From positions 13,820 through 77,819 of the forward strand of contig QHXN01000028.1 of the NCBI GenBank assembly GCA_003222975.1: a DNA stretch of 64,000 bases. Reading direction: 5' to 3'. The position numbers were made by a program, and so were the translations under genes. Source of the stretch: Acidobacteriota bacterium (GTDB lineage: Bacteria > Acidobacteriota > Blastocatellia > Pyrinomonadales > Pyrinomonadaceae). Below are positions 978-62,859 of this stretch, piece by piece (within the stretch, counting starts at the first letter, position 1; each line of letters starts with the position of its first letter). The notes under the pieces were generated by a model. That model did not search any database and was not told the DNA's origin. It saw only the letters and a list, made by a program, of their open reading frames with translations.

Positions 978-1086
978 AGGAGGCAGGAGGCAGGAGCAGG
1001 AAGCAGGCAGAACCAATATCAAACTGGAATCTCAAATTCTGAATAGAGCTGCCCCGACTGCCTCCTGCCCCCTGCCTCCCGCTCCT
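978..1086. repeat. heptamer-periodic hairpin element (unit AGGAGGC/AGGCAGG), imperfect
   Basis: Left arm aggaggcaggaggcaggagcaggaagcaggcag (978-1010) is roughly complementary to ctgcctcctgccccctgcctcccgctcct (1058-1086). It fills the gap between the SRPBCC stop (1091) and the ADH start (961). Confidence 0.65.
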
Positions 1087-1090
1087 GATT

Positions 1091-1924
1091 CTATCTTCCC
1101 GCCGACGCGCTGCGCCCCGAAGTCTGTTCTTTGGTCGCGACGCTGCGCCCCGAAGTCTGTCCCTCGGTCGTGGCGACCTCGCCGGTCTCCATGAGTTGCT
1201 TGAACCGGCCCAGGTCTTCGACGATCTGCTGTTCCGGGCTTTCGCCGAAGAGGCGCGCGACCAGAGCGCCGAGCTTGCCGCCCGGCGGGTCGTACTTGAG
1301 GACGACGCGCACGAACGTGCCGCGCCCGCCCGCGGCCTGCTCGAAGTGAACGGAGCCGGCGCTATCAACGTCTGCGCCTTCGAGCGTGCGCCAGGCGATC
1401 ATCTCGCCTTCCTTCTCGTTGTAGATTTCCGCGTCCCACTCGACGCTTCGCCCCGCCGGGGCCTTCGCGACCCAGTGCGAGCGGCCCTCGCCCGTCACGC
1501 GCACGGACTCCAGGTGATTCATGAACCGCGGCAGGTTCTCGAAGTTGCGCCAGAAGCGGTACAGCTCTCCGGGCGGGCGGTTGATGGTCACGCTCTTCTC
1601 GACCTTGATGCCTCGGCCCGCGGGCACGCTCACGTTCTCGCTGTTGCGCAGGCCGCCGCCCTCGGCGCTGCTGTAGCCCATCGCGTCGTAGAGGTTACAG
1701 TGGCCCGTCGCGCCCCTCTGCACGAGCGCCGCGCCCACGAGCGCCAGCGCGATGCCGCCCAGACTCCCGCGCGTCAGCCCGTAGAGCGCCAGCGCGCCGC
1801 CGCCGATGGCCGACGCCCAACGCTCCGCCTGCCCGACGTTGACCGTCGCGCCCATGCGCGTGCCCTCGCCCGTCTCTTCCGTCGCTTGCCCGACGTTCGT
1901 CAATGCTTCTTCATTCGCTGCCAT
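1091..1924 (-). CDS. SRPBCC (cyclase/dehydrase-like) protein with N-terminal membrane segment
   Basis: ORF-track frame 1091..2020. I prefer ATG at 1924 (MAANEEAL...), which is preceded by GGAGGAG. The Gly/Ala-rich TM stretch GGGALALYGLTRGSLGGIALALVGAAL is followed by ELYRFWRNFENLPRFMNHLESV...WDAEIY, typical of the SRPBCC fold. The C-terminus carries a duplicated QTSGRS motif from an approximately 23-25-nt direct repeat (1103-1127 and 1138-1160). Confidence 0.7.
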   Translation of the reverse strand: MAANEEALTNVGQATEETGEGTRMGATVNVGQAERWASAIGGGALALYGLTRGSLGGIALALVGAALVQRGATGHCNLYDAMGYSSAEGGGLRNSENVSVPAGRGIKVEKSVTINRPPGELYRFWRNFENLPRFMNHLESVRVTGEGRSHWVAKAPAGRSVEWDAEIYNEKEGEMIAWRTLEGADVDSAGSVHFEQAAGGRGTFVRVVLKYDPPGGKLGALVARLFGESPEQQIVEDLGRFKQLMETGEVATTEGQTSGRSVATKEQTSGRSASAGR

Positions 1925-2110
1925 CCCAGTCTTCTCCTCCCGCGAAACGTTTTTAGGACACCACGGCCACGGGACAGACTCCGGCCTGTCCGAAAACTGC
2001 TCGTCGCCAGCCGTGTTCACTGACAGGCAGACAAGCCTCGTGCCGTGTCACACAATGGCCGGGTTGTTTGCTTTGAGTTATTGAGTGAGAGAGTTTTTTA
2101 AGGAGTGAAA

Positions 2111-2138
2111 GAGAAAATCGGGGCGATAGGATTTGAAG
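2111..2138. repeat. degenerate direct copy of the tRNA-Pro 3' end plus flank (att-like)
   Basis: gagaaaatcggggcgataggatttgaag (2111-2138) matches gagaaagtcggggcggagggatttgaac (2523-2550) at 23 of 28 positions. The two copies bracket the HNH ORF. Confidence 0.7.
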
Positions 2139-2144
2139 CGCGAT

Positions 2145-2513: not shown

Positions 2514-2529
2514 TTGAGAAGTGAGAAAG

Positions 2530-2603
2530 TCGGGGCGGAGGGATTTGAACCCCCGGCCTTCTGGTCCCGAACCAGACGCGCTACCAGGCTGCGCTACGCC
2601 CCG
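2530..2603 (-). tRNA. tRNA-Pro (anticodon CGG)
   Basis: The reverse strand reads CGGGGCGTAGCGCAGCCTGGTAGCGCGTCTGGTTCGGGACCAGAAGGCCGGGGGTTCAAATCCCTCCGCCCCGA. It has a 7-bp acceptor stem, D arm GCGC/GCGC, anticodon stem TCTGG/CCAGA with loop TTCGGGA, and T loop TTCAAAT. CCA is not encoded. Confidence 0.93.
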
Positions 2604-2694: not shown

Positions 2695-3330
2695 TCAGCT
2701 TTCTTGCGGGCGCGAGTGCTTCATGTGACGCCAGACCCACCATGCGGCGGCGAGGATGAAGGCGATGCCGATGAGGAAGTCGAAGCGGTGGAACCATGTC
2801 TTCAGCGAGTCGTTCTTGTCCCACTGCTCGCCGAGAATCTGTCCGACGTAGGCGAGGCCCAGACACCACGGCAGAGAGCCGAGGAAGGTATAGAGGGTGA
2901 AGCGCGACAGGTTCATGCGCGCCACGCCCGCGGGGAAGGCGATGAAGGTGCGCACGACGGGCAGCAGTCGGCTGGCGAAGACGATGATCTCACCGTAGCG
3001 CGCGAACCAGCGGTCTGCCAGATCGAGGTCGCCGCGCGAGATGAGGACGAAGCGCCCGTACCTTTCTATGAAACGCCGCCCGCCGTATTTGCCCGCCCAG
3101 TAGGCGACGAGCGACCCGACGACGCAGCCCGCGGCCCCGGCCACGGCCACGGCCCAGAGGTTGAACCGCCCCGTGTGCACGAGGTAGCCCGAAAACGGCA
3201 TGATGACCTCCGACGGAAGGGGTATGCATGCCGACTCGATAGCCATCAAAAGCACGACGCCCGCGTAGCCGAGCGTCGAGATCGTCGCCACGATGAAGGC
3301 GGAAAGGATTTCGATTATTCTCGCGACCAA
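2695..3330 (-). CDS. DedA family membrane protein
   Basis: YAGVVLLMAIESACIPLPSEVIMPFSGYL...YGGRRFIERYGRFVLISRGDLDLADRWFARYGEIIVFASRLLPVVRTFIAFPAGVARM is a classic DedA/SNARE-associated pattern. I chose TTG at 3330 because GGAG lies 8 nt upstream. The track start at 3477 would read through the hairpin and the pcm 3' end. Confidence 0.8.
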   Translation of the reverse strand: MVARIIEILSAFIVATISTLGYAGVVLLMAIESACIPLPSEVIMPFSGYLVHTGRFNLWAVAVAGAAGCVVGSLVAYWAGKYGGRRFIERYGRFVLISRGDLDLADRWFARYGEIIVFASRLLPVVRTFIAFPAGVARMNLSRFTLYTFLGSLPWCLGLAYVGQILGEQWDKNDSLKTWFHRFDFLIGIAFILAAAWWVWRHMKHSRPQES

Positions 3331-3347
3331 GTAAGCACTCCGTTTTA

Positions 3348-3423
3348 AGTTACAAGTCACAAGTTCAAGGTTCAAAGTTAATTCGGTCTTCAACTTTGAA
3401 CCTTGAACTTGTGACTTGTAACT
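3348..3423. repeat. heptamer-periodic hairpin element (AGTTACA/AGTCACA/AGTTCAA/GGTTCAA)
   Basis: A perfect 32-bp stem pairs 3348-3379 with 3392-3423 around a 12-nt loop. The pcm stop codon (3422-3424) overlaps the foot. Confidence 0.95.
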
Positions 3424-4108
3424 ATTCGTTATTCCAGCCGTAGCGACCGATGAGCGGGACGAAGGCGCACGGGCCATGCTCCTCGTGCTGGTAGCCCTCC
3501 TCTGTGCGGAGGACGCGGACGAGGCGCTGCGACTCGCGCGAAGCGCCGACGGGGATGACGAGGCGGCCCCCGACCTTCAGTTGCGCGAGCAGTGGTTCGG
3601 GCACTTCAGGCCCGCCGGCGGCGACGAGGACACAGTCGTAGGGTGCGTGCGCAGCCCAGCCGAGCGTGCCGTCGAAGCACTTGACCGTGGCGTTGTAGAT
3701 GCCTAAGCCGCGTATGCGCGACTGCGCCTCGCGCGCCAACTCCGGGATGCGCTCGATTGCATAGACCTGGCCGGCGACGCGCGCGAGCACGGCGGTCTGG
3801 TAGCCGGAGCCTGCGCCGATTTCGAGCACGCGGCTCGTCTTGTCTGCTTCGAGCAGCTCGGTCATGCGCGCGACGATGTAGGGCTGCGAGATGGTCTGGT
3901 TGGCGTTGATCGGGAGTGCGTGGTCGCCGTAGGCGCGGCCCTGCAAGGCTTCGGGGACGAAGAGGTGGCGCGGCACTTCCGTCAACGCTTCGAGCACGCG
4001 CGGGTCGCGAATCTCGTAGTGGTCGCGCAGGCGCTCGACCATGCGCCTACGCGGGATGCGAAAACCTGTTGACTGTGCTGCCGACCAGTTTGAAGGCAAG
4101 GAACTCAA
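3422..4108 (-). CDS. pcm: protein-L-isoaspartate O-methyltransferase
   Basis: ISQPYIVARMTELL...VLEIGAGSGYQTAVLA...VLVAAGGPEVPEPLLAQLKVGGRLVIPVG, in the conserved surE-pcm gene order. The start is either TTG 4108 (AGGAAG SD) or ATG 4042. Confidence 0.9.
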   Translation of the reverse strand: MSSLPSNWSAAQSTGFRIPRRRMVERLRDHYEIRDPRVLEALTEVPRHLFVPEALQGRAYGDHALPINANQTISQPYIVARMTELLEADKTSRVLEIGAGSGYQTAVLARVAGQVYAIERIPELAREAQSRIRGLGIYNATVKCFDGTLGWAAHAPYDCVLVAAGGPEVPEPLLAQLKVGGRLVIPVGASRESQRLVRVLRTEEGYQHEEHGPCAFVPLIGRYGWNNE

Positions 4109-9261: not shown

Positions 9262-10025
9262 CGCACCAAGACTCCTCGTTCGCGCAAATACTTTTTCACC
9301 TCGCCGACGGTGAACTCTCCGAAGTGGAAGAGCGACGCCGCCAGCACCGCACTCGCGCCGCCCGCCGTCAGTGCCTCGTAGAAATGTTCGAGCCTGCCCG
9401 CGCCGCCGGACGCGATGACTGGAATACGCACGGCGTCAGCTACCGCGCGCGTCAGCTCGATGTCGTAGCCGTCGCGCGTGCCGTCGCAGTCCATGCTCGT
9501 CAGCAGAATCTCGCCCGCGCCCAACTCCTCGGCTCGCGCCGCCCACTCGACGGCGTCACGCCCGACGGTGCGGCGACCGCCGTGCGTGAAGACCTCCCAG
9601 CCCGCCGACGCGTCGCGCGCGACACGCCGCCGCGCATCAATCGCCACGACCATGCACTGGCTGCCGAACACGCTCGCGCCCTCCGTTATCAACTCCGGGC
9701 GCTCGACCGCCGCGGTGTTGAGAGAAACTTTGTCCGCGCCCCCGCGCAGGACGGCGCGCACGTCCTCAATCGAGTTCAGCCCGCCGCCCACGGTGAACGG
9801 GATGAAGACCTCGTCGGCCACGCGGCGCACGAGTTCGGCGACGATGGCGCGCTTGTCTGCCGACGCGGTGATGTCTAGAAACGTCAGCTCGTCCGCGCCT
9901 TCGCGGTCGTAGCGCTTCCCCTGCTCGACGGGGTCGCCCGCGTCCACGAGCGAGATGAAGCGTATGCCCTTCACGACGCGACCGTTGTTGACATCGAGAC
10001 ACGGGATGATGCGCTTCGCGAGCAT
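9258..10025 (-). CDS. hisF: imidazole glycerol phosphate synthase cyclase subunit HisF
   Basis: [20 protein letters not shown]...[11 protein letters not shown]...PFTVGGGL...[12 protein letters not shown] use ATG 10025. The track N-terminal extension to 10265 is Arg-rich junk overlapping hisH. Confidence 0.92.
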
Positions 10026-10033
10026 TCGACGCC

Positions 10034-10639
10034 TCAGCCTTCCGCGAAATTTTTTAGCAGCCGGAGGCCCGCCGCCTGACTCTTCTCCGGGTGGAACTGA
10101 ACGCCGCAGACCCGCCCGCGCGCGACGACCGAGAAGTATCTCAGGCCGTACTCGGTCTCGCCGATCACCACGTCCTCGTCCGACGCATCGCAGAAGTAAG
10201 AGTGGACGAAGTAGAAAAAAGACTGGCTCTCGATGCCTTCCGCGAGCGCGTGTTCTTTGCGCCACCCGACCTGATTCCAGCCGACCTGCGGCACGCGCAG
10301 ACTCGCGGGGAAGCGTCGCACGCGACCGCGCAGGAAACCGAGGCCGGCGGTGACGCCGAACTCCTCCGACTCCTCAAAGAGCATCTGCATGCCGACGCAG
10401 ACGCCGAGCAGCGGTGTGCCTTCCTCGACGCGCTCGCGCACGAGGCGGTCGAAGCCGCGCTCCGCCAAAGCCTCCATGCACGCGCGGAACGCGCCGACGC
10501 CCGGCAGCACGAGTTTCGACGCCCCGCGCAGCACGCCCTCGTCAGCGCTGACGACCGCCTTGCAGCCCGCCGCGTGGAAAGCCTTCTCGACCGAGCGAAG
10601 GTTCCCCACGCCGTAATCTATGATCGCCACGCGAGCCAA
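10034..10639 (-). CDS. hisH: imidazole glycerol phosphate synthase glutaminase subunit HisH
   Basis: [17 protein letters not shown]...LVLPGVGAF...[10 protein letters not shown]...HSY are class-I amidotransferase (HisH) motifs. Confidence 0.92.
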
Positions 10640-11350: not shown

Positions 11351-11358
11351 AGTTAAAT

Positions 11359-12511: not shown

Positions 12512-12512
12512 A

Positions 12513-53483: not shown

Positions 53484-53485
53484 TG

Positions 53486-55084
53486 ATGGCTTTACAACTA
53501 AGACGCAAAGTTCACGAGTCGGTCGTCTTTATTGACCGCGACAGCGCGCCGCGCATCATCTCTTCGGGGATGGATTTCCAACTCGAAGACCTGCCCGTCG
53601 GCACGCGCGTCATCTACCCGAACGCGCCCATCAAGGGGTTGCCGAACCGCGAGGCCGCGATCCGCTACGCGCTGAACCACCCGCACGACTGCGACCCGCT
53701 CTACGCGCAGTTGGAGCCGGGCATGAAGGTGACGGTCGCGATAGACGACATCTCGATGCCCCTGCCGCCGATGCGGACGCCCGACATACGGCAGACGGCG
53801 CTCGAAATCCTGCTCGACCTTTTGCACGCCAACGGCGTTGACGACGTGCACCTCATCATCGCCATCTCGCTCCACCGCCGCATGACCGAGTCGGAGATCA
53901 AGCGCATGGTCGGCCCGCGCGTCTTCAAAGAGTTCTGGCCCGAACGCCTCTACAACCACGACGCCGAAGACCCCGACCGGATGGTCACCATCGGCGAGAC
54001 GCGCCACAAGGAGGTGCTGCGCCTCAACCGGCGCGCCGCCGAGAGCGATCTCCTCATCTACCTCAACTACAACTTCGTCCCGATGAACGGCGGCCACAAG
54101 TCGGTCGCCGTCGGCCTGTGCGACTACGAGTCCCTGCGCCCGCACCACGAGCCGCAGACCATACTCGACTCGGACAGCTACATGGACCCCGCGAACTCGG
54201 AGCTGACGCGCAAGATCAACCGCATGGGAGAGCTTGTGGACGAGCACCTCAACGTCTTCCACATCGAGACGACTGTCAACAACCAGATGTTCAAGGGCGA
54301 GCTTTCCTTCCTCACCAAAAACGAGGACGAGTTCTCGGCCTACGACCGCATGAAGTACGAGGCCATGCGCTTCACGATGTCGAAGATGCCGCGCGCCGCG
54401 CAGCGCAAGATGTACAACGCGCTCACCTCCGACTACGAGATGATCGCCGTCGAGGCCGGAAGGACAGACCCCGTCCACGAACGCATCATCGAAAAATCAA
54501 TGCAGCAGTACGTCGTCCCCATCGAAGGCCAGTGCGATATACTCATCTGCCCCATCCCCGAAATCTCGCCCTACAACGTCTATTCGACCCTGAACCCGCT
54601 GCTCGTGCAGGTGATGGCCTTGGGCTACCACTTCAACATGTACCGCGGCAAGCCCCTGCTGAAGAAAGGCGGCGTGCTCATACTTCACCACCCATGCTAC
54701 GACGAGTTCGACCACGTGCAGCATCCGAGCTACATCGAGTTCTTCAACCGGCTGCTTCCCGAAACGCGCGACTCCCACACCCTGCGCGAGAAGTACGAGC
54801 GCGAGTTCGCGACGAATCCGAGTTACATAGAGATGTACCGCCGCGGCCACGCCTACCACGGCGCGCACCCTTTTTATATGTGGTACTGGGGCGAGAACGG
54901 GCGCGCGCACGTGGGCCGCGTCATCGCCGCGGGCGCGGAGAACGCGCACGTCCCCGCCGCGCTTGGGTGGGAGCGCGCCGACAACCTGACCGAGGCCATC
55001 GCCATGGCCCGCAGCTACGTGGGCCGCTCCGCGCAGATCACGATGCTCCACCAGCCCGTGATCGCCATCTGCGATATGAGTTAA
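53486..55084 (+). CDS. LarA-N-terminal-domain (DUF2088)-like protein
   Basis: I use ATG 53486, because the track TTG 53471 lies in the hairpin. ...[20 protein letters not shown]...[21 protein letters not shown]... resembles the lactate-racemase N-domain family. This is weak, memory-based recognition. Confidence 0.5.
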
Positions 55085-55127
55085 CGTGCGACGCGGAAGC
55101 AGGTATCATGTTGTCAGTTTTGAAAGT

Positions 55128-58100
55128 ATGAAGCTATCGCCCACAGAGATTTATAACGGCAGGAACGTCTTCATCATCGGCGCGACCGGGTTCGTCGGCA
55201 AGGTCGCGCTCTCGATGCTGCTCGACCGCTTCCCCGGCGTCGGGCGCGTCTATGTCACCGTGCGCGCGCGCTCGAAGGAGGAATCGGAAACAAGATTCTG
55301 GAACAACGTCATCACCGCGCCGCCCTTCGACCCCGTGCGCGAGCGCTACGGCGCGGCCTTCGAGGAATTCATCCGCGACAAGGTTCGCGTCGTCAACGGC
55401 GACATCAGCGAGGAGCGTTTAGGGTTCACGGAGGAAGAAGCGCAAACGGTCGCCTCGGACATTGACGTGCTCATCAACAGCGCGGGCAACGTCACCTTCA
55501 ACCCGACCTTAGAGAGCGCGCTTCGCACGAACGTCGTCGGCACGCAGAACGTCATCGCCTTCGCCAGAAGGATGCGCCGGCCCGCGCTCGTCCACATCTC
55601 GACCTGCTTCGTCGCGGGCAACCGCACCGGCCCCGTCTGGGAGAGCGACCCCGTGCTCGGCTACTTCCCGCGCCGTGAAGAGCTGCGCGGCGTCGAGTTC
55701 AACGTCGAGCACGAGATACGCGACTGCGCCCGCCTCGCCGAGCGCGTGCGCGAGGAGGCGCGCGACGCCTTGCAGGTCGCCCGCTTCCGCGAGAACGCGC
55801 GCAAGCGCCTCGTCGAAGAAGGGCGCGACCCCGACGACCTCGACGCGATGGGACTCGCCGTCGCGCGTGAGCGAAAACTTTGGACGCGCGAGCGCCTGAC
55901 GGAACTCGGCATCGAGCGCGCGACCTTCTGGGGCTGGCCCAACATCTACACCTACACGAAGAGCCTCGGCGAACAACTTGTCGCCGCCGAGAAAGAGATC
56001 GTGCGCGCCATCATCCGCCCTTCAATCGTCGAGTCGGCGCTTAGCTATCCCTTCCCCGGCTGGAACGAGGGCTTCACGACGACCGCGCCGCTCATCTTCA
56101 TCGCGCTCAAGGGTCAGCAGCAGATTCCCGTCAACGACAAGCTCATCCTCGACATCACGCCCGTGGATCAGGTCGCCGCCGTGATGCTCGCCGTCGCCGC
56201 CGAGACCATTGAGCGCGAGCCGCGACTCGTCTATCAGGCCGCCACCGGCGACAGCAACCCGAACACGATGGAGCGCATCGTCGGCCTGCTCGGCCTCCAC
56301 AAACGGAAACACTTTCAGGAGAAGGAGACCGGCTTCCGCATAGTCAACGAGTTCGCCGCGCGCATGGAGACGAAGCCGGTCACGCCCTCGCGCTTCGACG
56401 CGATGTCCACGCCGATGGTCAACGCGGCGGCTCGACGGGCTTCGTCGCTCCTCGAACGCGTGCGCCCGCGCTGGGGCGGGGGCCGCCTCACAGACATCGT
56501 TGACCGCGCGAAGGCCACCGTCGGGCGCGTCGAGGAGTTCACGCGCGAGACTGAGGAAGCGTTCGAGATGTTCCGGCCCTTCATGGTCGAGAACGCATAC
56601 ATCTTCCGCTCCGACAACGTCCGCTCGCTCTTCTCGCAGGTGCGCGAGGACGAGCGGCAACTTCTCAAGTGGAACCCGGAGCAGTTCGACTGGTACGACT
56701 ACTGGATGAACGTCCACTTCCCCGGCTTGAAGAAGTGGGTCTTCCCCAAGCTCGAAGAGGACATGCGCGCGCAGCCGAAGCGCGTTTATACCTACCGCGA
56801 CCTGCTCGAACTCTTCGAGACCTCGGCCAAGCGCTTCTCCACGCGCGTCGCCATGCGCGTCGAGCGCGACGGCGAGCAGGAGCGTTACACCTACGCCGAC
56901 ATTCAGGAGCTTGCGACGCGCGCCGCCGCCTTCTTCGCCTCGCAGGGCGTCAAGCCCGCCGACCGCGTCCTGCTCGCCAGCCACAACGCGCCGGAGTGGG
57001 GCATCAGCTACTTCGGCGTGCTGAAGGCGGGCGCGACTTGCGTGCCCGTTGACCCTGAAAGCTCGACCGAAGAACTCGTCAACTTCGCGCGCGCGAGCGG
57101 CGCGACCGGCGTCATCCTCGGCGAGAAGGCCGACGCCGAACACCCAGACCTTCAGGAGAAATTGATTGAAGCCGGACTTGAGGCGCGTCTGTGGCGCTAC
57201 GCGGAAATCTTCGAGCTGACGGACGAGGCGACGGAAGACCGGCGCATCGCGCTTCTGCCCGCGCGCGTCTCGCCGAACACGGTCGCCTCGCTCATCTTCA
57301 CTTCCGGCACGACGGGCCAGCCCAAAGGCGTCATGCTCTCGCACAAGAACCTGACGAACATGGTCTCGATGCTCGCCTCCGTCTTCGAGATGGACACGGG
57401 CGACGGCGTGCTCTCGGTTCTCCCGCTCTACCACACCTTCGAGTTCTCCACGGGCTTCCTCACGCCCCTCAGCCGCGGCACGCAGATCACTTACCTCTCA
57501 GAGCTGAACGGCGAGGAGTTGGCGCGCGCCATCAAGCACAACCACGTCACGGGCATGGTCGGCGTGCCCGCCCTGTGGGAGCTTCTGCACCGGCGCATCA
57601 TGTCGCGCCTGCGCGAGCGTGGCGAGTGGGTCGGCAGCGCCGCCGAGGCCATGATGCGCTTCAACAGTTGGCTGCGCGACAAGACGCCGCTCAACCTCGG
57701 TCAGGTCATCTTCCTCCCGATCCACCGCGGCCTGGGCGGGAACATTCGCTACCTCATCAGCGGCGGCTCGGCCTTAAACGAAAAGGTCAAGCGCGACATG
57801 CACGGCCTCGGCTTCACCATACTCGAAGGCTACGGCCTCACGGAAGCTTCGCCCGTGCTCACGGTGACGCGCCCGCAGAACTCTCTGAACGCGGCGAGCG
57901 TCGGGAAGGCTTTGCCCGGCGTCGAAATCCGCATCGCCGATGCCGGACGAGTCGGCGTCGGCGATGCGGACTCGTCCGGCATCGGCGAGGTCATCGCGCG
58001 CGGGCCGAACGTCATGCTCGGCTACTACCGCAACGAGCAGGCGACGCAATCGGCGCTCACGGGCCGCTGGCTCAGCACGGGCGATTTGGGCCGCCTCGAC

Positions 58101-59582
58101 GACGAAGGCAACCTCTACCTCGTCGGTCGCTCGAAAGAGATCATCGTTGACACGAACGGCAAGAACGTCTATCCGGACGAGATCGAGGAGCTTTACAAGG
58201 ACTCGCCGCTCGTCAAAGAACTCGGAGTCGTCGGCATCGCCGAGGGGCTGGGCGAGAAGGTCGCGTGCCTCGTCGTCCCCGACTACGACTCCGACATCAG
58301 CCTTCAGCGTGAAGAGGTGCACCGCCGAATCGAAAACCACTTCCGCGAAATCTCCTCGGCGCTCCCCTTCTACAAGCGCGTCAAGGCGCTCTACTTCACC
58401 GACACGGAACTCCCGCGCACGGCGACGCGCAAGGTCAAGCGCCGCGAGGTCATCCGCATCATCCAGTCGCTCGAAGCCTCAAAGCGCGCAGGGATAACGG
58501 AAAAAACAGCGCCGCGCGAGACGCACCACGACGCCGACTGGCTGCTCGGACTCGTCGCTTCCGTTTCGGGGCGACCGCGCGCGCAGGTCTCGCTCGACTC
58601 GCGCCTGTCCGAACTCGGCTTCGACAGCCTGATGTTCGTCGAGCTGGCAACGTCAATCGAGCAGGCGGGCGGCACAATCGTCTCGCCCGACACCTTGAAC
58701 GAGGTGACGGACGTGCGCGAGCTGTACTCGGTCGTCCGCCGGCGCGAGACCGCGGCGGCCCGGCGTGCGGCGGAGGCGCGCGCCGAGGAAGACCGCCGCG
58801 TCGAGGAGCGAGAGATTTACGTCCCCACGCTCGTCCGCACGGTCGGCAACCGCGCCGTTGATATAACGCAGCGGCTCCTCTACGAGCGCGTGCTCGAAAC
58901 TCACGTGGAGGGGCGCTCGAACATCCCCACCCACACCAACTTCATCGCGGCGACCAACCACACCTCGCACCTCGACACGGGACTCATCAAGTACGCGCTC
59001 GGCGAGTACGGGCGCGACATGGTCGCGCTCGCCGCCGCCGACTACTTCTTCGACAATCGTTACAAGCGCGCCTACATGAACAACTTCACGAACATCGTCC
59101 CCATCGAGCGTTCGGGAAGTCTGCGCCAGTCGCTCCGCCACGCGCGCTCGTTCCTCGAACGGGGCTACACGGCTCTCATCTTCCCCGAAGGCACGCGCTC
59201 GATGACGGGCGAGATGGCCGAGTTCAAGTCGGGCTTCGCCTACCTCGCCCTGAACACGCGCACCGGCATCCTGCCCGCATACCTCTGGGGCACCTACGAA
59301 GCTTTCCCGAAAGGCTCGACCGTACTCAAAGGGCGCGAGGTCGGCGCGCGCATCGGTCGCTTCCTCGCCATCGAGGAACTCGAAGAGCTGACCCGTGGGA
59401 TGCCGCGCGCCGAAGCCTACCGCCTCGTCGCCGCGCTCGTCCGCCACGAGATCGAGAACCTGCGCGACGGCACGCGCCACGCCTTCGACGCCACCACGCT
59501 CCGCCGCCGCTGGAAGGCCGAGCGCCATCACAGCCACGAAGACGCGCACGACGAGGGCGAGCTTGCGACGACGGGAGACTGA
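55128..59582 (+). CDS. elbD: multidomain ether-lipid biosynthesis enzyme, ElbD-like (fatty acyl reductase + AMP-ligase + carrier protein + PlsC acyltransferase)
   Basis: The reductase Rossmann IIGATGFVGKV is at about 55180. The adenylation core LIFTSGTTGQPKGVMLSHKN is at about 57290, with GYGLTE and GDLG. The Ppant site LGFDSLMFVEL is at about 58615. The acyltransferase motifs are NHTSHLD at about 58965 and FPEGTRS at about 59185. The start could alternatively be GTG 55086. Confidence 0.8.
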   Translation: MKLSPTEIYNGRNVFIIGATGFVGKVALSMLLDRFPGVGRVYVTVRARSKEESETRFWNNVITAPPFDPVRERYGAAFEEFIRDKVRVVNGDISEERLGFTEEEAQTVASDIDVLINSAGNVTFNPTLESALRTNVVGTQNVIAFARRMRRPALVHISTCFVAGNRTGPVWESDPVLGYFPRREELRGVEFNVEHEIRDCARLAERVREEARDALQVARFRENARKRLVEEGRDPDDLDAMGLAVARERKLWTRERLTELGIERATFWGWPNIYTYTKSLGEQLVAAEKEIVRAIIRPSIVESALSYPFPGWNEGFTTTAPLIFIALKGQQQIPVNDKLILDITPVDQVAAVMLAVAAETIEREPRLVYQAATGDSNPNTMERIVGLLGLHKRKHFQEKETGFRIVNEFAARMETKPVTPSRFDAMSTPMVNAAARRASSLLERVRPRWGGGRLTDIVDRAKATVGRVEEFTRETEEAFEMFRPFMVENAYIFRSDNVRSLFSQVREDERQLLKWNPEQFDWYDYWMNVHFPGLKKWVFPKLEEDMRAQPKRVYTYRDLLELFETSAKRFSTRVAMRVERDGEQERYTYADIQELATRAAAFFASQGVKPADRVLLASHNAPEWGISYFGVLKAGATCVPVDPESSTEELVNFARASGATGVILGEKADAEHPDLQEKLIEAGLEARLWRYAEIFELTDEATEDRRIALLPARVSPNTVASLIFTSGTTGQPKGVMLSHKNLTNMVSMLASVFEMDTGDGVLSVLPLYHTFEFSTGFLTPLSRGTQITYLSELNGEELARAIKHNHVTGMVGVPALWELLHRRIMSRLRERGEWVGSAAEAMMRFNSWLRDKTPLNLGQVIFLPIHRGLGGNIRYLISGGSALNEKVKRDMHGLGFTILEGYGLTEASPVLTVTRPQNSLNAASVGKALPGVEIRIADAGRVGVGDADSSGIGEVIARGPNVMLGYYRNEQATQSALTGRWLSTGDLGRLDDEGNLYLVGRSKEIIVDTNGKNVYPDEIEELYKDSPLVKELGVVGIAEGLGEKVACLVVPDYDSDISLQREEVHRRIENHFREISSALPFYKRVKALYFTDTELPRTATRKVKRREVIRIIQSLEASKRAGITEKTAPRETHHDADWLLGLVASVSGRPRAQVSLDSRLSELGFDSLMFVELATSIEQAGGTIVSPDTLNEVTDVRELYSVVRRRETAAARRAAEARAEEDRRVEEREIYVPTLVRTVGNRAVDITQRLLYERVLETHVEGRSNIPTHTNFIAATNHTSHLDTGLIKYALGEYGRDMVALAAADYFFDNRYKRAYMNNFTNIVPIERSGSLRQSLRHARSFLERGYTALIFPEGTRSMTGEMAEFKSGFAYLALNTRTGILPAYLWGTYEAFPKGSTVLKGREVGARIGRFLAIEELEELTRGMPRAEAYRLVAALVRHEIENLRDGTRHAFDATTLRRRWKAERHHSHEDAHDEGELATTGD

Positions 59583-59587
59583 GCGAT

Positions 59588-59656
59588 AGTTCCAAGTTCA
59601 AGGTTCAAAGTCGGCGGCCTTGAACTTTGAACCTTGAACTTGGAACTTTGAACTTT
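59588..59656. repeat. heptamer-periodic hairpin element (AGTTCCA/AGTTCAA/GGTTCAA)
   Basis: A perfect 23-bp stem pairs 59588-59610 with 59625-59647, followed by extra TTGAACT units up to 59656. It lies between the ElbD-like stop (59580-82) and the SDR ATG (59658). Confidence 0.95.
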
Positions 59657-59657
59657 C

Positions 59658-60779
59658 ATGGCCGCGACAAAGAAAAGCACCGCGAAGAAGGGGGCGACGA
59701 AAGCCGCGGCTAAGGCTAAGAAGGCTGAGGGCGCGTCGAAGACGGGCGCGCTCGCCAGAAGGCGGCGGCCCTTGACGCTCGTCACGGGCGGGACGGGATT
59801 CCTCGGCTCGCACCTCGTCAGACTGCTCGTCGCGGAGGGCGTGAAGCCTCTGCGCGTGCTCTCGACTTCCGCGCCCGCGTGGCTCGAAGAACTAGGCGTC
59901 GAGACCGTCAAAGGCTCGGTCACTTCGCCGGAGGACGCCCGGCGTGCGGTCGAGGGCGTCGCGGAGGTCTATCATCTGGCGGGGCGTGTCTCGCGCGATA
60001 AGGAAGACGCGCACAAGATGTACAGCCTGCACGTCGAGGGCACGCGCGTCTTGTGCGAGGCGGCGCGTGGGGCGGGCGTCCGCTCGATGGTCTTGGCCTC
60101 GACGAGCGGCACAATCGCCGTGACGGACACGGGCGACGTTGTGCCGGACGAGGACTGGCCCGTCCCGCTCGAAATCATCTCGCGCTGGCCTTACTACGCG
60201 AGCAAGCTCTACCAGGAGCGCGTCGCCCTCGAACACTTTTCGGGCAAGAACCGTCGGCTCGTCATCATGAATCCGAGCCTGCTGCTCGGCCCCGGCGACG
60301 AGCGTTTGAGTTCGACTAAGGTCGTGCTCGACTTCCTCGCGCGCAAAATCCCGACCGTGCCCAAAGGCGGCCTGAGCTTCGTGGACGCGCGCGACGCGGC
60401 GCATGCCTTCTACGCCGCGATGCAGCAGGGCGCGCACGGCGAGCGCTACCTGCTCGGCTCGGCGAACTGGACTTTCGAGAAGTTCTTCGGGCGTCTGGAG
60501 CGCATCACGAAAGTCTCCGCTCCGTTCGTCTCGCTTCCCTCGAAGCTCGCTGTTGCGGGGGCGCGTGGGCTTAGCTCAATCTTCCGCCAGTGGAAACTCG
60601 CCCCGCCCGTCGAGCCAGCCGAGATCGAGATGGCCGAATACTTCTGGTACCTCGACTCGTCGAAGGCGCGGACGGAACTCGGCTTCACGCCGCGCGACAC
60701 GTCGGAGACTTTGCTCGACACGGTCAACTACGTGCGCGAGAACTTCCTCGGCGGCGAGGCTTTCCGCAACGCGGGTTGA
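59658..60779 (+). CDS. NAD-dependent epimerase/dehydratase family (extended SDR) protein
   Basis: VTGGTGFLGSHLVRLL, YYASK. There is a 38-aa Lys/Ala-rich N-terminal extension if ATG 59658 is used. The alternative TTG 59772 gives MTLVTGGTG. Confidence 0.8.
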   Translation: MAATKKSTAKKGATKAAAKAKKAEGASKTGALARRRRPLTLVTGGTGFLGSHLVRLLVAEGVKPLRVLSTSAPAWLEELGVETVKGSVTSPEDARRAVEGVAEVYHLAGRVSRDKEDAHKMYSLHVEGTRVLCEAARGAGVRSMVLASTSGTIAVTDTGDVVPDEDWPVPLEIISRWPYYASKLYQERVALEHFSGKNRRLVIMNPSLLLGPGDERLSSTKVVLDFLARKIPTVPKGGLSFVDARDAAHAFYAAMQQGAHGERYLLGSANWTFEKFFGRLERITKVSAPFVSLPSKLAVAGARGLSSIFRQWKLAPPVEPAEIEMAEYFWYLDSSKARTELGFTPRDTSETLLDTVNYVRENFLGGEAFRNAG

Positions 60780-60785
60780 ATGGTT

Positions 60786-61727
60786 TCAGGGACACCGAAC
60801 GCGCAGCGCCCCCGGCACAATCTCAAATGTCGCGGGCAAGCGCCCGGCAAGCTCGCCGTCAATCTCCAGCTTCACTTCTTCGCCGGCAACGGGCTGCGCG
60901 GCCACGCGGCGCGCGTGCGCGTGGCGAACATCCTGCATGCCGAGGTGCGTGCCGAGATAGACGCGGTAAGATTTAGTGAGTATCGCGAGCGCGCTCATGT
61001 CGCCAACGGCGACCACGTCGAACAGGCCGTCGTCCAGCACAGCCCCCGGCGCGATCTTCATGCCGCCGCCGAAGAAACGCGCGTTCGCCACGCAGAAGTT
61101 CGTGACGACCAGACGCGACTCGCGCCCGTCGTCGAGCGAGACGCGCACGGCGGGCTTCTCGAAAGTGAGCGTTGACTGAAGGGCCGCGAGCGCGAACGTG
61201 AGCCTGCCTCCGACGAGGCGCGACGCGCCCGCCGAGAGTCCGGCGCGCTCCTTCACGCGGCGGATCACGTCGCCGCCCATGCCGAACGAGGCCACGTTCA
61301 AAAAAAATCTCGTCTCCTCTTCCCCGCCCTCGCTCGTGAAGTGGACGCGGCCCGCGTCCAACACTCGCGTCTCGCCGTCGCGCAAGTGCCGCGCGGCGTC
61401 GGCGGCGCGCGTCGGGATTTTTAATGTGCGCCGGAAGTCGCCGCCCGTGCCGCTCGGCAGCACGCCGAGTTCTGCCCGCGCGCCAGCGCGCAGGATGCCG
61501 TTCACTACCTCATTGATCGTGCCGTCGCCCCCGCAGGCGACGACGAGCGCGCGGCCCGCGCGCGCCTCGCGCTCGGCTATCTCTTCGGCCTCGCCGCCAC
61601 GCCGCGTGAACGCCACCTCGAACGGGCCGAAGTGTCGGCGCACCTCGCTCGCCAAGCCCGGCCAGGCCGCGCCGGTCGCGCCGCCCGCCGACGCGGGGTT
61701 GACGATGATGAGAGGCAGCAGAGACAT
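60786..61727 (-). CDS. diacylglycerol/lipid kinase family protein (YegS/DagK type)
   Basis: IIVNPASAGG...VVACGGDGTINEVVNG...LGVLPSGTGGDF... Confidence 0.85.
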   Translation of the reverse strand: MSLLPLIIVNPASAGGATGAAWPGLASEVRRHFGPFEVAFTRRGGEAEEIAEREARAGRALVVACGGDGTINEVVNGILRAGARAELGVLPSGTGGDFRRTLKIPTRAADAARHLRDGETRVLDAGRVHFTSEGGEEETRFFLNVASFGMGGDVIRRVKERAGLSAGASRLVGGRLTFALAALQSTLTFEKPAVRVSLDDGRESRLVVTNFCVANARFFGGGMKIAPGAVLDDGLFDVVAVGDMSALAILTKSYRVYLGTHLGMQDVRHAHARRVAAQPVAGEEVKLEIDGELAGRLPATFEIVPGALRVRCP

Positions 61728-62675
61728 TTATGATTTGCGATTGTAGATTTGAGATTTCATCCGGGCCGATGGCGCGGAGTCGAGCGCGTCGTACTTCGCT
61801 TCGAGTGCGCGCTCGGCGCGATCCTGCTCGCCGAGTTCGGCGATCTTCGACATACAGAAGTCGGCGATCTCCTTGTAGGTGCGAACCGAGTCGCGCCGTT
61901 CGTAGAACTCGGAGAAGTCGAGCGCGGGGCCGAAGCGCACGCGCACCGGCTCGCCGCCGCGCCAGTTGCCCGTGACTTGATGCGCGAGGTCGTTGCCTAA
62001 ACCCGCGATGAAGACGGGCACGACCTGCGGGCGGGCGTCCTTTATCAGTTTGCCGATGCCGGGCTGCGGGCGCAGGTACGTGTAAGGGTCTGCCGACTTG
62101 TTGCGCGTGCCTTCGGGATGGAAGCCTATGACGTTGCCCGCGCCCTCGCGGCAAAGCCCTGTGAGCAGGCGCATCGAGAGCTTGTCGAACTCACGCTTCT
62201 CGACCAGAGGGTTCTCGCCGCCCGCGAAGAAGGGCGGGAACATTGACCACCAGCCCATGACGAAGTTGACGACGAGGCCGCCCGCCGAGTCGTAGAAGAA
62301 GCGACCGCGCACGGGGAAGAACAGTTGTTTGCGCCAGCGCGTCCGGCGGAAGAGCACGGTCGAGACGACGTACATGTCGAAGAACGAGCGGTGGTTGGCG
62401 ACCAGCAGCAGCGGGCGTCCGTGCGAGACCGCCTCGACGTATTCGAGGCCGTGGACGCGCATCAGGTTGTAAGTCGAAAGATGAATCCAGCCCGCGCCGA
62501 CGACGCGCTGGCAGAAAGTCCAGAAGCGCTTCCAAGCCCCCCGGTTCATCCGCCAGGCGAGGCGGAACGCGAAGCGCTCGAACGGCGAGAGCACGGCCAA
62601 CTCCTCAGCCGTCGCCTCGACCGCGCCCGCCCCGTCCTGTTTCACCTCGACTCCCATCTCGACCGGATTGTTCAT
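61728..62675 (-). CDS. PlsC-family acyltransferase (lysophospholipid acyltransferase-like)
   Basis: The HX4D motif is VANHRSFFD and the second motif is FHPEGTRN. The stop TAA abuts the lipid-kinase ATG. I prefer ATG 62675, whereas the track start is TTG 62762. Confidence 0.75.
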   Translation of the reverse strand: MNNPVEMGVEVKQDGAGAVEATAEELAVLSPFERFAFRLAWRMNRGAWKRFWTFCQRVVGAGWIHLSTYNLMRVHGLEYVEAVSHGRPLLLVANHRSFFDMYVVSTVLFRRTRWRKQLFFPVRGRFFYDSAGGLVVNFVMGWWSMFPPFFAGGENPLVEKREFDKLSMRLLTGLCREGAGNVIGFHPEGTRNKSADPYTYLRPQPGIGKLIKDARPQVVPVFIAGLGNDLAHQVTGNWRGGEPVRVRFGPALDFSEFYERRDSVRTYKEIADFCMSKIAELGEQDRAERALEAKYDALDSAPSARMKSQIYNRKS

Positions 62676-62765
62676 GTGCCACCGGCTCAAAATTAATGGA
62701 CTGAAGCGGAGTCGCGCAAGCGGCGAGTCTATGACGATTTTCAGTTGAGCGTATGGCAACAACCG

Positions 62766-62859
62766 TTAACCACCGCAGGCACAGAGGGCACGGAGACGGC
62801 ACAGAAGTCCTGTTTTCTCTGCGAAACCTCCGTGCCCTCTGTGCCTGCGGTGGTTTAAT
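62766..62859. repeat. hairpin element of the CACAGAG family
   Basis: The 27-bp perfect stem accaccgcaggcacagagggcacggag (in 62766-62795) pairs with ctccgtgccctctgtgcctgcggtggt (in 62829-62859). It shares the TTAACCAC...GTGGTTA ends with the 17385 element. Confidence 0.9.

Follow-up and report, generated by a model that had tools for sequence, protein, structure and literature searches.

Intergenic heptamer hairpins of Pyrinomonadaceae match the unexplained STRR-type repeats of cyanobacteria and turn over rapidly

The window, a 64,000-nucleotide stretch from a Pyrinomonadaceae soil acidobacterium, carries his and tad operons whose stop-to-start gaps are occupied by hairpins with arms of tandem 7-nt units. 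In the his genes, read on the minus strand, an ATGATGA/ATGCGGA hairpin (15738 to 15822) lies in the 5' leader, between an attenuator terminator (15831 to 15865) and the hisZ ATG 2 nt past the 3' arm. The hisZ/hisG gap holds a TTTTTGA/TTTTAGA hairpin (14506 to 14603; arms 14506 to 14539 and 14570 to 14603, loop of 30 nt), with the ATG also 2 nt beyond the 3' arm. A GTTCAAR hairpin (12512 to 12580) makes up the whole hisD/hisC gap; its first unit overlaps the TAG stop, and the ATG directly adjoins its 3' arm (0 nt). In the hisC/hisB gap, a second ATGATGA/ATGCGGA hairpin (11359 to 11429; arms 11366 to 11396 and 11399 to 11429) is followed after 8 nt by the hisB ATG, without a Shine-Dalgarno motif. 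The third copy of this family is a perfect 35-bp palindrome (18349 to 18437, no strand assigned; stem 18349 to 18383/18403 to 18437; folding z = −13.3) in the convergent gap between the gene at 17499 to 18320 (plus) and an SLT gene (18436 to 19368, minus). The three copies lie within 7 kb and share a similar apical AAGC..GCTT.

The tad genes, also on the minus strand, carry a TTAGCYG hairpin between cpaB and cpaC (30870 to 30994; arms 30873 to 30906 and 30961 to 30994, loop of 54 to 65 nt), with the Shine-Dalgarno motif GAGGAG retained 19 nt downstream, and a GTTCAGA variant between cpaE and cpaF (25491 to 25565; arms 25504 to 25527 and 25542 to 25565). The TCAGTAG hairpin of the cpaF/tadB gap (23992 to 24139) contains the cpaF TAG stop in its first unit, and its arms are unequal, with 6.0 perfect (100%) TCAGTAG units (23998 to 24039) versus 3.7 CTACTGG units (24103 to 24128). 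Between tadB and tadC, a CGTGAAC hairpin (22916 to 23022; arms 22916 to 22942 and 22996 to 23022) encloses a 53-nt loop with decayed units, and the ATG lies 3 nt beyond its 3' arm.

Further minus-strand elements include a GGAGGCA-unit hairpin (978 to 1079; arms 979 to 996 and 1062 to 1079, loop of 65 nt) between an ADH-like gene (2 to 961) and a cyclase-like gene (1091 to 2020), where the Shine-Dalgarno motif GGGGGAG is retained 17 nt past the 3' arm. A GTTCAAR hairpin (3348 to 3423) between a PCMT gene (3422 to 4108) and a VTT-domain gene (2695 to 3345) is a perfect 32-bp palindrome (3348 to 3379/3392 to 3423, loop of 12 nt, folding z = −15.4) with the units AGTTACA, AGTCACA, AGTTCAA, and GGTTCAA. 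The ATTGCGG/ATTGCGA hairpin (19372 to 19495; arms 19372 to 19404 and 19463 to 19495, loop of 58 nt) separates the gene at 19505 to 20938 from the SLT gene, and the GTGACGG/GTGCGGG hairpin (20904 to 20973; arms 20904 to 20925 and 20952 to 20973) separates a TPR gene from the gene at 19505 to 20938, with the Shine-Dalgarno motif CGGAG retained 28 nt downstream. An NAGAGGT array (45986 to 46087) pairs 5.6 units (45986 to 46024) with about 2.5 (46071 to 46087) between genes for an alpha/beta hydrolase (46095 to 46997) and an enoyl-CoA hydratase (45212 to 45982). Two GTTCAAR hairpins are on the plus strand. The stem base of one (53402 to 53487; arms 53402 to 53435 and 53454 to 53487) overlaps the stop and start codons alike. 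The other (59588 to 59656), between an ElbD-like multidomain gene (55086 to 59582) and an epimerase/SDR gene (59658 to 60779), has a perfect 24-bp stem (59588 to 59611/59624 to 59647) plus two additional 3' units, and the ATG follows 1 nt past its 3' arm.

A single heptamer layout, proposed for all sites by the sequence-only reading, applies to most of them; the exceptions are the CACAGAG family and two minor sites. CACAGAG-type elements are palindromes with an irregular 8- to 9-nt period and no heptamer array. One (17381 to 17478, no strand assigned; ends TTAACCAC...GTGGTTA) occupies the divergent gap between a VWA gene (16157 to 17332, minus) and the gene at 17499 to 18320 (plus). The other (62768 to 62855, minus; ends AACCACC...GGTGGTT) is a perfect 28-bp palindrome (62768 to 62795/62828 to 62855) with a period of about 9 and a ΔG of −71.9 kcal/mol, and the family also includes the hisD/hisC element of the related locus L004. 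A weak minus-strand pair (46997 to 47057) of 2.7 GTGATGA units (47001 to 47019) and 2.1 TTATCGC units (47043 to 47057), with a ΔG of −7.9 kcal/mol, is a marginal member. A GATTTGA-type array of 3.7 units (61732 to 61757, minus) has a single arm and no inverted partner; it forms the last codons of an acyltransferase gene (61728 to 62762) and abuts the start of a DAGK-like gene (61727).

An inverted-repeat finder returned 22 strong close inverted repeats in the window, compared to a mean of 0.5 and a maximum of 3 in 20 shuffles, and the arms of 15 of these 22 showed their best autocorrelation at lag 7, versus 0 in shuffles; under relaxed criteria, about 20 hairpins in the window are 7-nt periodic. 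In a tandem-period scan of the window, 23 period-7 tracts were found, versus 0.8 in dinucleotide shuffles, while periods of 8, 10, and 13 gave none and periods of 6, 9, 12, and 15 gave the usual coding signal. The long intergenic inverted repeats of the first reading are real, in large excess over chance. No heptamer hairpin lies inside the window's coding regions. The arrays that it had cited at 23998, 22916, 14506, 19372, 30871, and 45986 were all present, four being called as ATTTTAG/ATTTTTG at 14508, AATTGCG at 19371, TTAGCTG at 30871, and TCAGAGG (5.6 units) at 45986, and its perfect stems were recovered as 32/32 (3348), 35/35 (18349), 24/24 (59588), and 28/28 (62768). Computed RNA folding of the elements gave −29 to −72 kcal/mol, with z = −5 to −15.

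Heptamer hairpins were found in 19 Pyrinomonadaceae/Blastocatellia metagenome-assembled genome (MAG) loci, whereas a set of about 40 control loci belonging to other phyla yielded none, save two marginal 14-nt matches. The genomes that carry them span 45 to 68% GC, and in relatives they are located in spc/alpha ribosomal-protein operons and in structural modules of phages. The hairpins are real and abundant across Pyrinomonadaceae. Within single genomes, ATTTGCG units fill three consecutive gaps in L179, and in L201 several ribosomal-protein gaps in a row hold TGGAAT-type units. The same unit families recur over genomes of 36 to 69% GC and in a second phylum, with a GTTCAAR hairpin in the Bacteroidota contig L159; local slippage would not be expected to give this recurrence by itself, which hints at horizontal mobility or at a factor that may read the sequence.

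The elements show no context preference: gaps between codirectional, convergent, and divergent genes all carry them, and they are also seen downstream of an attenuator in a 5' leader and within the tail and head modules of phages. The assignments to hisZ/hisG, hisD/hisC, hisC/hisB, cpaB/cpaC, cpaE/cpaF, cpaF/tadB, tadB/tadC, and ElbD-like/epimerase gaps held, and that to a mutase subunit pair did not; no hairpin-flanking gene pair had a Pfam match to a mutase family, and the pair at 53402 encodes an HAD hydrolase and a LarA-like protein. The median distance from stop codon to 5' arm was 4 nt (58 codirectional GTTCAAR elements), and the next start codon lies 0 to 11 nt past the 3' arm in about 10 window cases. 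A Shine-Dalgarno motif preceded 0/13 genes with a hairpin ≤12 nt upstream versus 20/39 others, and was retained in every case with a 17- to 28-nt spacer. On the sense strand, ATG was absent from the 3'-arm consensus units (0/58 versus 6.4 expected).

The sequence-only reading had predicted that unit sequences turn over while the architecture is kept, and in orthologous gaps, unit sequences have indeed been gained, lost, and replaced. The hisD/hisC gap contains GTTCAAA units in the window and L005, a CACAGAG-type element in L004, and GTCAGTC units in L037; in L001, L002, L003, and L008, it is 18 to 27 nt long without a hairpin, with a Shine-Dalgarno-like motif in the latter three. The tadB/tadC gap showed six unit types over seven genomes, and at the gap of the ATTGCGG hairpin, just 12 nt (CGCAATCCGCAA) are left in L001. 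Strains L201 and L202 differ by one 7-nt unit indel in the S13/S11 arm. In the PCMT/VTT-domain gap, AGTTACA/TGTAACT in the window corresponds to AGTTCCG/CGGAACT in L001, with both arms altered. Arm complementarity was 0.90 in register versus 0.81 when shifted by 7 nt (permutation control, 0.887 versus 0.812), and units within one arm were 0.81 identical. Units were heterogeneous in 24/26 perfect palindromes, and variant units were mirrored across both arms in mirrored order. Sense-strand stem mismatches comprised 29 G·U and 34 A·C, with no preference for G·U, in a test whose power is limited by its 63 transition mismatches. These data point to a process at the DNA level rather than to selection acting on the sense-strand RNA.

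Heptamer hairpins have published precedent. STRR-type repeats had been taken to be tandem arrays only; in fact, STRRs, usually of 7 bp, form hairpins between hupS and hupL of several filamentous cyanobacteria, where a contribution to transcript stability or to translational coupling has been suggested (PMC2670836). In Xanthomonas, arrays of the heptamer GGGAATC make up 70 to 75 inverted pairs, convergent in orientation, that could fold into stem-loops (PMC4692102). Our elements match this long-known, still unexplained kind of repeat. An Rfam search of the elements matched no family, and the view that the heptamer hairpins are not CRISPR was borne out. Nor are they classic REPs or one-sequence REP/BIME elements: when the GTTCAAR family was set aside, the remaining 108 hairpins had 78 distinct consensus units.

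Could the elements be selected cis-acting RNA devices? As intercistronic "punctuation" stems, they would shield the upstream cistron against 3' exonucleases and/or serve as a substrate for a double-strand RNase, and by keeping the stop codon close to the start codon they would let ribosomes re-initiate without a Shine-Dalgarno motif. The repeats might be read by a protein that covers about 7 nt, for instance one with a cold-shock domain. The filled stop-to-start gaps, the Shine-Dalgarno counts, the ATG-free 3' arms, a G-richer 5' arm in 47/59 hairpins, and the location in highly expressed ribosomal-protein and phage structural operons are consistent with this, as are the roles proposed for STRRs and the binding of about one heptamer by each cold-shock protein (PMC4679880). 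However, orthologous gaps freely lack the element, being plain, short, and mostly provided with a Shine-Dalgarno-like motif; hisZ lacks that motif in hairpin-less relatives too, so the hairpin is not required for Shine-Dalgarno-less initiation. The G bias is reversed in the L201 TGGAAT family, G·U is not favoured over A·C, and divergent and convergent gaps also carry elements. We regard selected RNA devices as a less likely alternative to our main reading. Termination or attenuation without U-tracts, for which the very stable computed stems and the convergent position of 12/94 evaluable GTTCAAR elements and one window element (18349) might speak, is highly improbable: hairpins stand between nearly every gene of the his, tad, and spc/alpha operons, often 0 to 11 nt before a start. 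A terminator scan called none of them, in agreement with the earlier view that they are not simple terminators, and the lineage has canonical terminators with a GC stem and T-tract, such as that at 15831 to 15865, which is unlike the hairpins and is conserved in relatives.

Non-autonomous REP/REPIN- or MITE-like mobility, in which a transposase encoded elsewhere (RAYT/IS200-like HUH or another enzyme) would read the folded palindrome and the heptamers would be secondary, fits the recurrence of families at non-orthologous sites within and across genomes, a nested element in L005, the occurrence in phage contigs and a second phylum, the TAG/GTAG-like beginnings of some elements, and the full-length similarity of ATGATGA/ATGCGGA and CACAGAG copies, which extends to the ends (TTAACCAC...GTGGTTAA) and to an apical mini-stem. 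We nonetheless consider it unlikely. Neither a conserved target sequence nor its duplication was seen when filled and empty sites were compared, loops are unrelated among GTTCAAR and ATTTGCG copies, the 78 consensus units form a continuum instead of a few discrete families, and no transposase-family Pfam match was obtained among 40 window proteins (about two thirds of called genes). Moreover, the S11/S4 arms flank a conserved ancestral core, a layout that simple whole-palindrome insertion cannot yield and that fold-back may explain. Assembly or chimera artefacts at low-complexity repeats come to mind because the sequences examined are mostly metagenome assembled, but their probability is negligible. 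An independent JGI metagenome contig (L144) is 99.4% identical to window positions 56492 to 64000, with the three elements of this part unchanged, including that at 59588; MAGs from many laboratories contain elements; the elements occupy orthologous positions, where they vary in a way that makes biological sense; and two closed circular long-read contigs (4.27 and 4.05 Mb; 141× and 14× coverage) have similar hairpins between most ribosomal-protein genes.

Our main reading, to which we assign a probability of about one half, is that these are STRR-like, birth-and-death palindromic simple-sequence repeats arising from slippage and arm-to-arm copying, a lineage-wide, fast-turnover intergenic DNA of Pyrinomonadaceae and their phages rather than individually conserved regulatory RNAs; they are tolerated and may be of slight benefit as RNA stems between cistrons. 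Arms would lengthen or shorten in 7-nt steps via replication slippage, a step demonstrated by the one-unit indel between strains and the unequal arms at 23992 and 45986. Each arm would be preserved, or produced, as a complete mirror copy of the other; the many perfect palindromes with mirrored variant units attest to such copies, which may come from fold-back/template-switch copying or from the transfer of entire palindromes from one gap to another close by. If arrays arise first, unpaired arrays are the expected intermediates, and their rarity (one in the window, at 61732 to 61757) counts against this reading, as do the S11/S4 layout and the recurrence of unit families across genomes and in a second phylum. 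Decay after birth would ignore RNA wobble rules, and over the evolutionary distance between species of the family, elements disappear or give way to others. Persistence would be confined to where an element is harmless, from the stop codon to the next Shine-Dalgarno motif or start codon; the lack of ATG in the arm beside the start codon reveals a sense-strand filter. If transcribed in operon mRNAs, stems of −30 to −70 kcal/mol (computed) would join stop and start codons, and would probably block 3' exonucleases and supply a double-strand RNase substrate, a proposed side effect, similar to that of REPs, on coupling and on the stability of mRNA segments, without transcription termination. The persistence of hairpins in ribosomal-protein operons and the 13 Shine-Dalgarno-less genes would fit a selected role in expression just as well.

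The sequence-only reading had described about 20 intergenic hairpins, and each of the hairpins and arrays that it quoted as examples was recovered in place by an inverted-repeat scan and Tandem Repeats Finder. When a tract was defined by 12 of 14 comparisons matching at a given lag, the window, which has a G+C content of 65%, contained 23 period-7 tracts, compared to 0.8 after dinucleotide shuffling; zero tracts were seen for periods 8, 10, and 13, and periods 6, 9, 12, and 15 showed the ordinary coding signal. An inverted-repeat finder (score of at least 14, loop of at most 130 nt) returned 22 inverted repeats in the window, compared to 0.5 in 20 shuffles. The lag of the best arm autocorrelation was then determined, and lag 7 ranked top in 15 of the 22 but in 0 of the shuffled repeats. 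This inverted-repeats-first detector superseded a stricter one, which applied a periodicity threshold to both arms and yielded 11 elements; with relaxed thresholds and inspection, about 20 elements were counted, as claimed. Thus, within the 64-kb window, the predicted excess over the shuffled control is present for both inverted repeats and tracts. One element (46997 to 47057) is marginal, and one array (61732 to 61757) stands alone without an inverted partner. The CACAGAG sites (17381 and 62768), taken earlier for a heptamer family, are palindromes with an irregular period of 8 to 9 nt. None of the elements lies inside a coding region, and RNA folding of ten of them gave −29 to −72 kcal/mol, with z scores of −5 to −15.

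Two further data sets speak against an assembly artifact. L144, an independent JGI metagenome contig, is 99.4% identical to positions 56492 to 64000; the differences are 23 SNPs and a single 24-nt indel in coding sequence. L144 has all three elements of the shared stretch, base-for-base identical. Heptamer hairpins were also found in two closed circular contigs (4.27 and 4.05 Mb, 46 to 47% G+C), in both of which they separate most genes of the spc/alpha ribosomal-protein operons. Altogether, the finding is real, and the elements are abundant and well above chance. The indel between the window and L144 is in frame, at 57945 to 57968 within the ElbD-like gene (55086 to 59582); as it falls inside a 24-nt coding tandem repeat (Tandem Repeats Finder row 57931 to 57988), it represents a copy-number polymorphism in a coding repeat.

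The best relatives of the window's HisD are Pyrinomonadaceae metagenome-assembled genomes (MAGs), with 88% identity, and among the top hisD loci, about 40 come from Pyrinomonadaceae or Blastocatellia MAGs. Most of the earlier gene labels were supported by Pfam: hisZ, hisG, hisD, hisC, and hisB on the minus strand; a tad/cpa pilus operon, also on the minus strand, with cpaB, secretin, cpaE-like, cpaF, tadB, tadC, and TPR genes; and an ElbD-like multidomain gene followed by an epimerase gene. The label "two mutase subunits" had no supporting Pfam hit. Upstream of hisZ, a leader ORF of 28 codons (15909 to 15995, minus strand), MAQRIHIRTLHHHGNHHRHAGSRVWCDS, contains 7 His codons, and a GC-rich stem with a T-tract (15831 to 15865, minus strand) lies downstream of this ORF and directly upstream of hisZ. 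Among relatives, a His-rich ORF is visible in L035, and the terminator stem with its T-tract is visible in about a dozen. Judged by its sequence, the 15831 to 15995 region looks like a classical his-operon leader-peptide attenuator, here in an acidobacterium; Rfam His_leader gave no match at the hisZ leader.

The elements hold a characteristic position between genes. In the mRNA sense, the 5′ arm begins a few bases from the upstream stop codon, frequently overlapping its TAG or TAA, and the median stop-to-arm distance was 4 nt in 58 codirectional GTTCAAR elements from metagenomes. The 3′ arm ends 0 to 11 nt before the next ATG in about 10 of 17 operonic elements, all without a Shine-Dalgarno motif, while the motif is kept where the spacer from arm to start is 17 to 28 nt. 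Counted by gene, the motif was present in 0 of 13 genes with a hairpin at most 12 nt upstream versus 20 of 39 other genes, an absence that is partly trivial since the ancestral gaps are just 10 to 30 nt. hisZ lacks the motif in hairpin-free relatives too, which also weakens the idea that the hairpin substitutes for a Shine-Dalgarno motif. By eye, some gaps have a split Shine-Dalgarno motif ahead of the 5′ arm, and many have none. ATG occurs 0 times in the arm next to the start, against 6.4 expected. Two proposed rules of unit composition were rejected: a stop triplet per unit, such that three units would close all frames, was about as frequent as in shuffled units (29 and 25 of 58 versus 31.8 and 22.5 expected), and a universally G-rich 5′ arm proved to be a bias only (47 versus 11), reversed in some families of low-GC genomes.

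Using the detector applied to the window, we found heptamer hairpins in 19 his loci of Pyrinomonadaceae/Blastocatellia, whereas about 40 control loci (Bacillota, Actinomycetota, Pseudomonadota, and others) had none except two marginal 14-nt matches. A search of metagenomes for the GTTCAAR hairpin pattern returned at least 120 contigs, and those among the matches listed ranged from 36 to 69% G+C. The rpoA-operon contig L179 (45% G+C) carries five hairpins within 5.3 kb, and the RpoA of L179 shares 87 to 92% identity with the listed matches, whose named sources are Pyrinomonadaceae, Blastocatellia, or Acidobacteriota MAGs, and the RpoA proteins of the two closed contigs (87 to 89% identity) are among its best matches. 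L159 (40% G+C) belongs to Bacteroidota by its DnaA, which is 97% identical to that of a Sphingobacteriaceae MAG, and has a GTTCAAR hairpin at 11860 to 11935. Thus, both the GTTCAAR unit and the architecture are present in a second phylum. Bona fide GTTCAAR hairpins were also seen in three other low-GC contigs, L128, L168, and L176. In IMG/VR, seven contigs had the GTTCAAR hairpin pattern. Three of these (L204, L205, and L209; 60 to 63% G+C) had their proteins scanned against PHROGs and proved to be structural modules of phages or prophages (tape measure, tail fiber, portal or terminase), each with 4 to 5 heptamer hairpins between genes, of families that include GTTCAAR and GTGAGCA.

Comparison of orthologous gaps across about 20 related genomes revealed element gain, loss, and replacement, the turnover that had been anticipated. 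At hisD|hisC, two genomes have GTTCAAA, a third has a CACAGAG-type element, and a fourth has GTCAGTC; the gap is short and hairpin free in four others, with a Shine-Dalgarno-like motif visible in three. Among seven genomes, the tadB|tadC gap has six unit types, some of them related (GTGAACC, GTGAATG, and GTGATAA), and one genome's gap is empty. Even in L001, the closest relative (protein identity of 96% for cpaF and 93% for tadB), the cpaF|tadB unit differs and the ATTGCGG element is reduced to 12 nt. In the g3422|g2695 gap, the window and L001 share a family, but their units differ, with the changes mirrored in both arms. In L201 and L202, a strain pair with identical RpoA, one arm is longer in one strain than in the other by precisely a single 7-nt unit, and their S8|L6 gap, within a more diverged tract, contains a wholly different element. 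Neighboring gaps tend to carry one family per genome. No strong consensus is common to all units, which show a weak Y-R-R tendency (3.3 versus 2.85 ± 0.12 bits). In the hisC|hisB gap of L005, elements are nested (about 12490 to 12670), with a CAGC-type heptamer hairpin in the loop of a GTGATGA-type hairpin. Between rpsK (S11) and rpsD (S4), a conserved core of about 60 nt, TTATCnAAAGGATGAAGGG...CCTGTAAACTTTTCCGTCAAA, is present in L179 (1907 to 2137), L201 (9120 to 9263), and the closed genome L203 (9043 to 9249), and it may be a ribosomal-protein leader or operator. Arms bracket this core in L179 and L203, and the L201 core is arm-less, indicating that arms can arise around a pre-existing spacer.

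Several known classes of palindrome or repeat were weighed against these data. An intrinsic terminator consists of a GC-rich stem and a trailing U-tract, placed where a transcription unit ends. As the sequence-only reading held, the elements are not simple terminators: a terminator scan of 10000 to 29999 called none of these hairpins, and a start codon follows within 0 to 11 nt. The canonical terminator at 15831 to 15865, with its His-rich leader and just upstream of the hisZ hairpin, indicates that the real terminators of this lineage look different. CRISPR arrays, in which a constant direct repeat alternates with unique spacers of similar length, were rightly set aside as well, since the elements consist of 7-nt units without spacers, and each locus is an inverted pair separated from other loci by genes. 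At the gathering threshold, Rfam passed the tRNA-Pro alone in the window; at an E-value threshold, the 15738 element and the hisZ leader gave just subthreshold matches to generic long hairpins (miRNA precursors). Integron attC sites are imperfect palindromes with GTTRRRY/RYYYAAC cores, one behind each promoterless cassette, and the cassettes vary in content, but here the flanking genes form conserved syntenic operons in at least 40 genomes, and the core motifs are absent at element ends. [quoted passage not shown] This candidate was also rejected, because filled versus empty orthologous sites showed no target-site duplication, loops are unrelated between copies, and the S11|S4 arms bracket an ancestral spacer. 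Likewise, no target motif or target-site duplication was evident at the elements, and no transposase family was found among 40 window proteins scanned against Pfam, a scan that covered about two-thirds of the called genes.

REP/BIME and REPIN elements, which are associated with RAYT transposases (IS200/IS605-like Y1 enzymes), come closer. They too are abundant intergenic palindromes in operons, form stem-loops when transcribed, and are polymorphic for presence among strains, and the E. coli malE-malF REP is known to affect the stability of upstream mRNA. The elements here, in contrast, have arms of 20 to 45 nt composed of tandem heptamers of many sequences; neither a tag nor a target-site rule was seen, and the 40 proteins scanned yielded no RAYT. 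The earlier distinction from REP/BIME elements holds, as 108 hairpins outside the GTTCAAR family gave 78 distinct consensus units, a very diverse set that forms a continuum with no constant tag. The TAG found at the 5′ end of many elements is the upstream stop codon. Published REPs measure 20 to 40 nt and have a terminal GTAG or CGTC tag, and each family has a single conserved palindrome sequence (PMC3733652).

The heptamer repeats named STRR (short tandemly repeated repetitive sequences) date back to 1990 and, to our knowledge, still lack a mechanism or function; their named units are CCCCAGT (STRR1), TTGGTCA (STRR2), and CAACAGT (STRR3). No tandem dimers of these units, of GGGGATT, or of TTTTGAA were found in the 1.31 Mb of the window and related loci. 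The sequence-only reading was mistaken in seeing no hairpin precedent, which has been published for STRR (PMC2670836) and for Xanthomonas (PMC4692102). The cyanobacterial STRR between hupS and hupL forms a hairpin with proposed roles in transcript stability or translational coupling (PMC2670836). Like STRR, the elements here consist of tandem 7-nt units that vary by site and strain, lie between operon genes, and form hairpins of complementary arrays; the window contains such units in at least 3 copies in noncoding DNA, as well as complementary arrays foldable between genes of one operon, as at hupS-hupL. Unlike the filamentous heterocystous cyanobacteria, the host has Pyrinomonadaceae relatives and belongs to Acidobacteriota (45 to 68% GC); moreover, nearly all arrays are hairpin paired here, and a large share of operon gaps is filled.

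Xanthomonas genomes have intergenic tandem GGGAATC arrays that often form convergent inverted pairs (70 to 75 of them) with stem-loop or cruciform potential (Rehm et al. 2015, PMC4692102), and convergent inverted pairs of tandem heptamer arrays are likewise the form seen here. In both cases, closely related species differ in array length and sequence but keep the repeat type, single or inverted pair. Xanthomonas, however, uses one G-rich unit with G-quadruplex potential, whereas dozens of units, mostly without G-runs, occur here, in arrays tightly packed between stop and start codons; tandem GGGAATC dimers were absent from the same 1.31 Mb. Polymerase slippage is an idea cited for the heptamer excess (PMC4692102). 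In Beggiatoaceae, cyanobacteria, and Bacteroidetes, TAACTGA arrays stop 1 nt short of start codons (MacGregor 2015, PMC4679880). They share with the elements a location a few bases upstream of starts and a unit common to distant phyla, for which no vector is known, and they have been suggested to act in translation; however, they are direct repeats with one inverted case reported (PMC4679880), whereas arrays here nearly always come in pairs. The window lacks the TAACTGA unit, but in the S13|S11 hairpin of L203 (8566 to 8640), (TAACTGA)x4.7 forms the 3′ arm, ending 4 nt before the rpsK ATG. In Nostoc, TTTTGAA/TTCAAAA arrays occur near start codons (bioRxiv paper), and this unit is one base from GTTCAAR. 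Full-text literature searches found no description of comparable repeats in Acidobacteria. Thus, what is new is the phylum and the unusual density; the kind of repeat is already known and not categorically new.

The relationship between the arms bears on their origin. In 193 hairpins, in-register arm complementarity was 0.90, compared to 0.81 when the arms were shifted by 7 nt and to an identity of 0.81 between units within an arm. In 24 of 26 perfect palindromes the units are heterogeneous, which means that the variants follow one another in mirrored order in the two arms. An asymmetry of G·U wobbles, considered as proof of selection on the sense RNA, was rejected (29 G·U versus 34 A·C mismatches, sense strand), and RNA wobble pairs do not appear to have been spared. 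Taken together, the data are consistent with birth and death of elements at the DNA level. Arrays would lengthen and shorten by 7-nt slippage, and each whole arm would serve to copy or correct the other through fold-back or template switching; alternatively to arm correction, whole palindromes might be transferred over short distances. New elements would be perfect palindromes that decay and are then deleted or replaced. Purifying selection would set just where and in what form elements are tolerated, which would explain their location between the stop and the Shine-Dalgarno motif or start and the lack of ATG in the start-side arm. After transcription, the elements would have to fold into long stems, which, by analogy with REPs and the roles proposed for STRR hairpins, probably stabilize upstream segments and hold stop and start close together.

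What the birth-and-death model chiefly fails to explain is that identical units recur over a wide span of G+C, in two phyla, and in phages, and this leaves room for a sequence-reading factor or a mobile vector. One such reading is that dedicated machinery writes or maintains heptamer palindromes at gene boundaries, is shared among phyla, and uses the hairpins as punctuation; we consider this unlikely as a whole, at roughly one chance in eight. Were it true, a binding protein or copying enzyme, possibly phage borne, would work in a 7-nt register, and Acidobacteriota, Bacteroidota, Cyanobacteria, and Beggiatoaceae would have this machinery in common or exchange it. Its footprint would be the units identical across phyla (GTTCAAR and TAACTGA), and the hairpins would serve as intercistronic punctuation for Shine-Dalgarno-independent reinitiation and segmental mRNA stability.

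The hairpin form of heptamer repeats is documented here in an unrelated phylum from soil, where it is very dense, occupying his, tad, and ribosomal-protein operons as well as phage structural modules. The comparative record is rich (hundreds of MAGs, closed genomes, and strain pairs) and already reveals 7-nt slippage, mirrored arm copying, fast turnover, and no RNA-wobble signature. This provides a second independent system for asking why the period is 7, what keeps the arms complementary, and how ribosomes initiate directly next to a stem of about −40 kcal/mol without a Shine-Dalgarno motif. In practice, the elements will mislead start-codon calling, since several ORFs here, taken at their longest, extend into arms, and terminator prediction and probably short-read assembly in Acidobacteria will be misled as well.

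The window has other features of note. A tRNA-Pro (CGG) gene (2529 to 2603, minus strand) is its sole Rfam or ARAGORN match, and beside it lie 500 nt (2037 to 2536) at 48% G+C without a confident ORF. Five ORFs of 273 to 706 aa with high GC3 (34044 to 35852, 36070 to 38190, 19505 to 20938, 17499 to 18320, and 49643 to 50659) had zero Pfam matches at 1e-5, and a nonheptamer inverted repeat (35925 to 36000) separates the first two. Finally, two tandem 52-codon ORFs (32509 to 32664 and 32749 to 32904, minus strand) adjoin the prepilin peptidase gene upstream in the tad cluster and may be Flp-type pilin genes.
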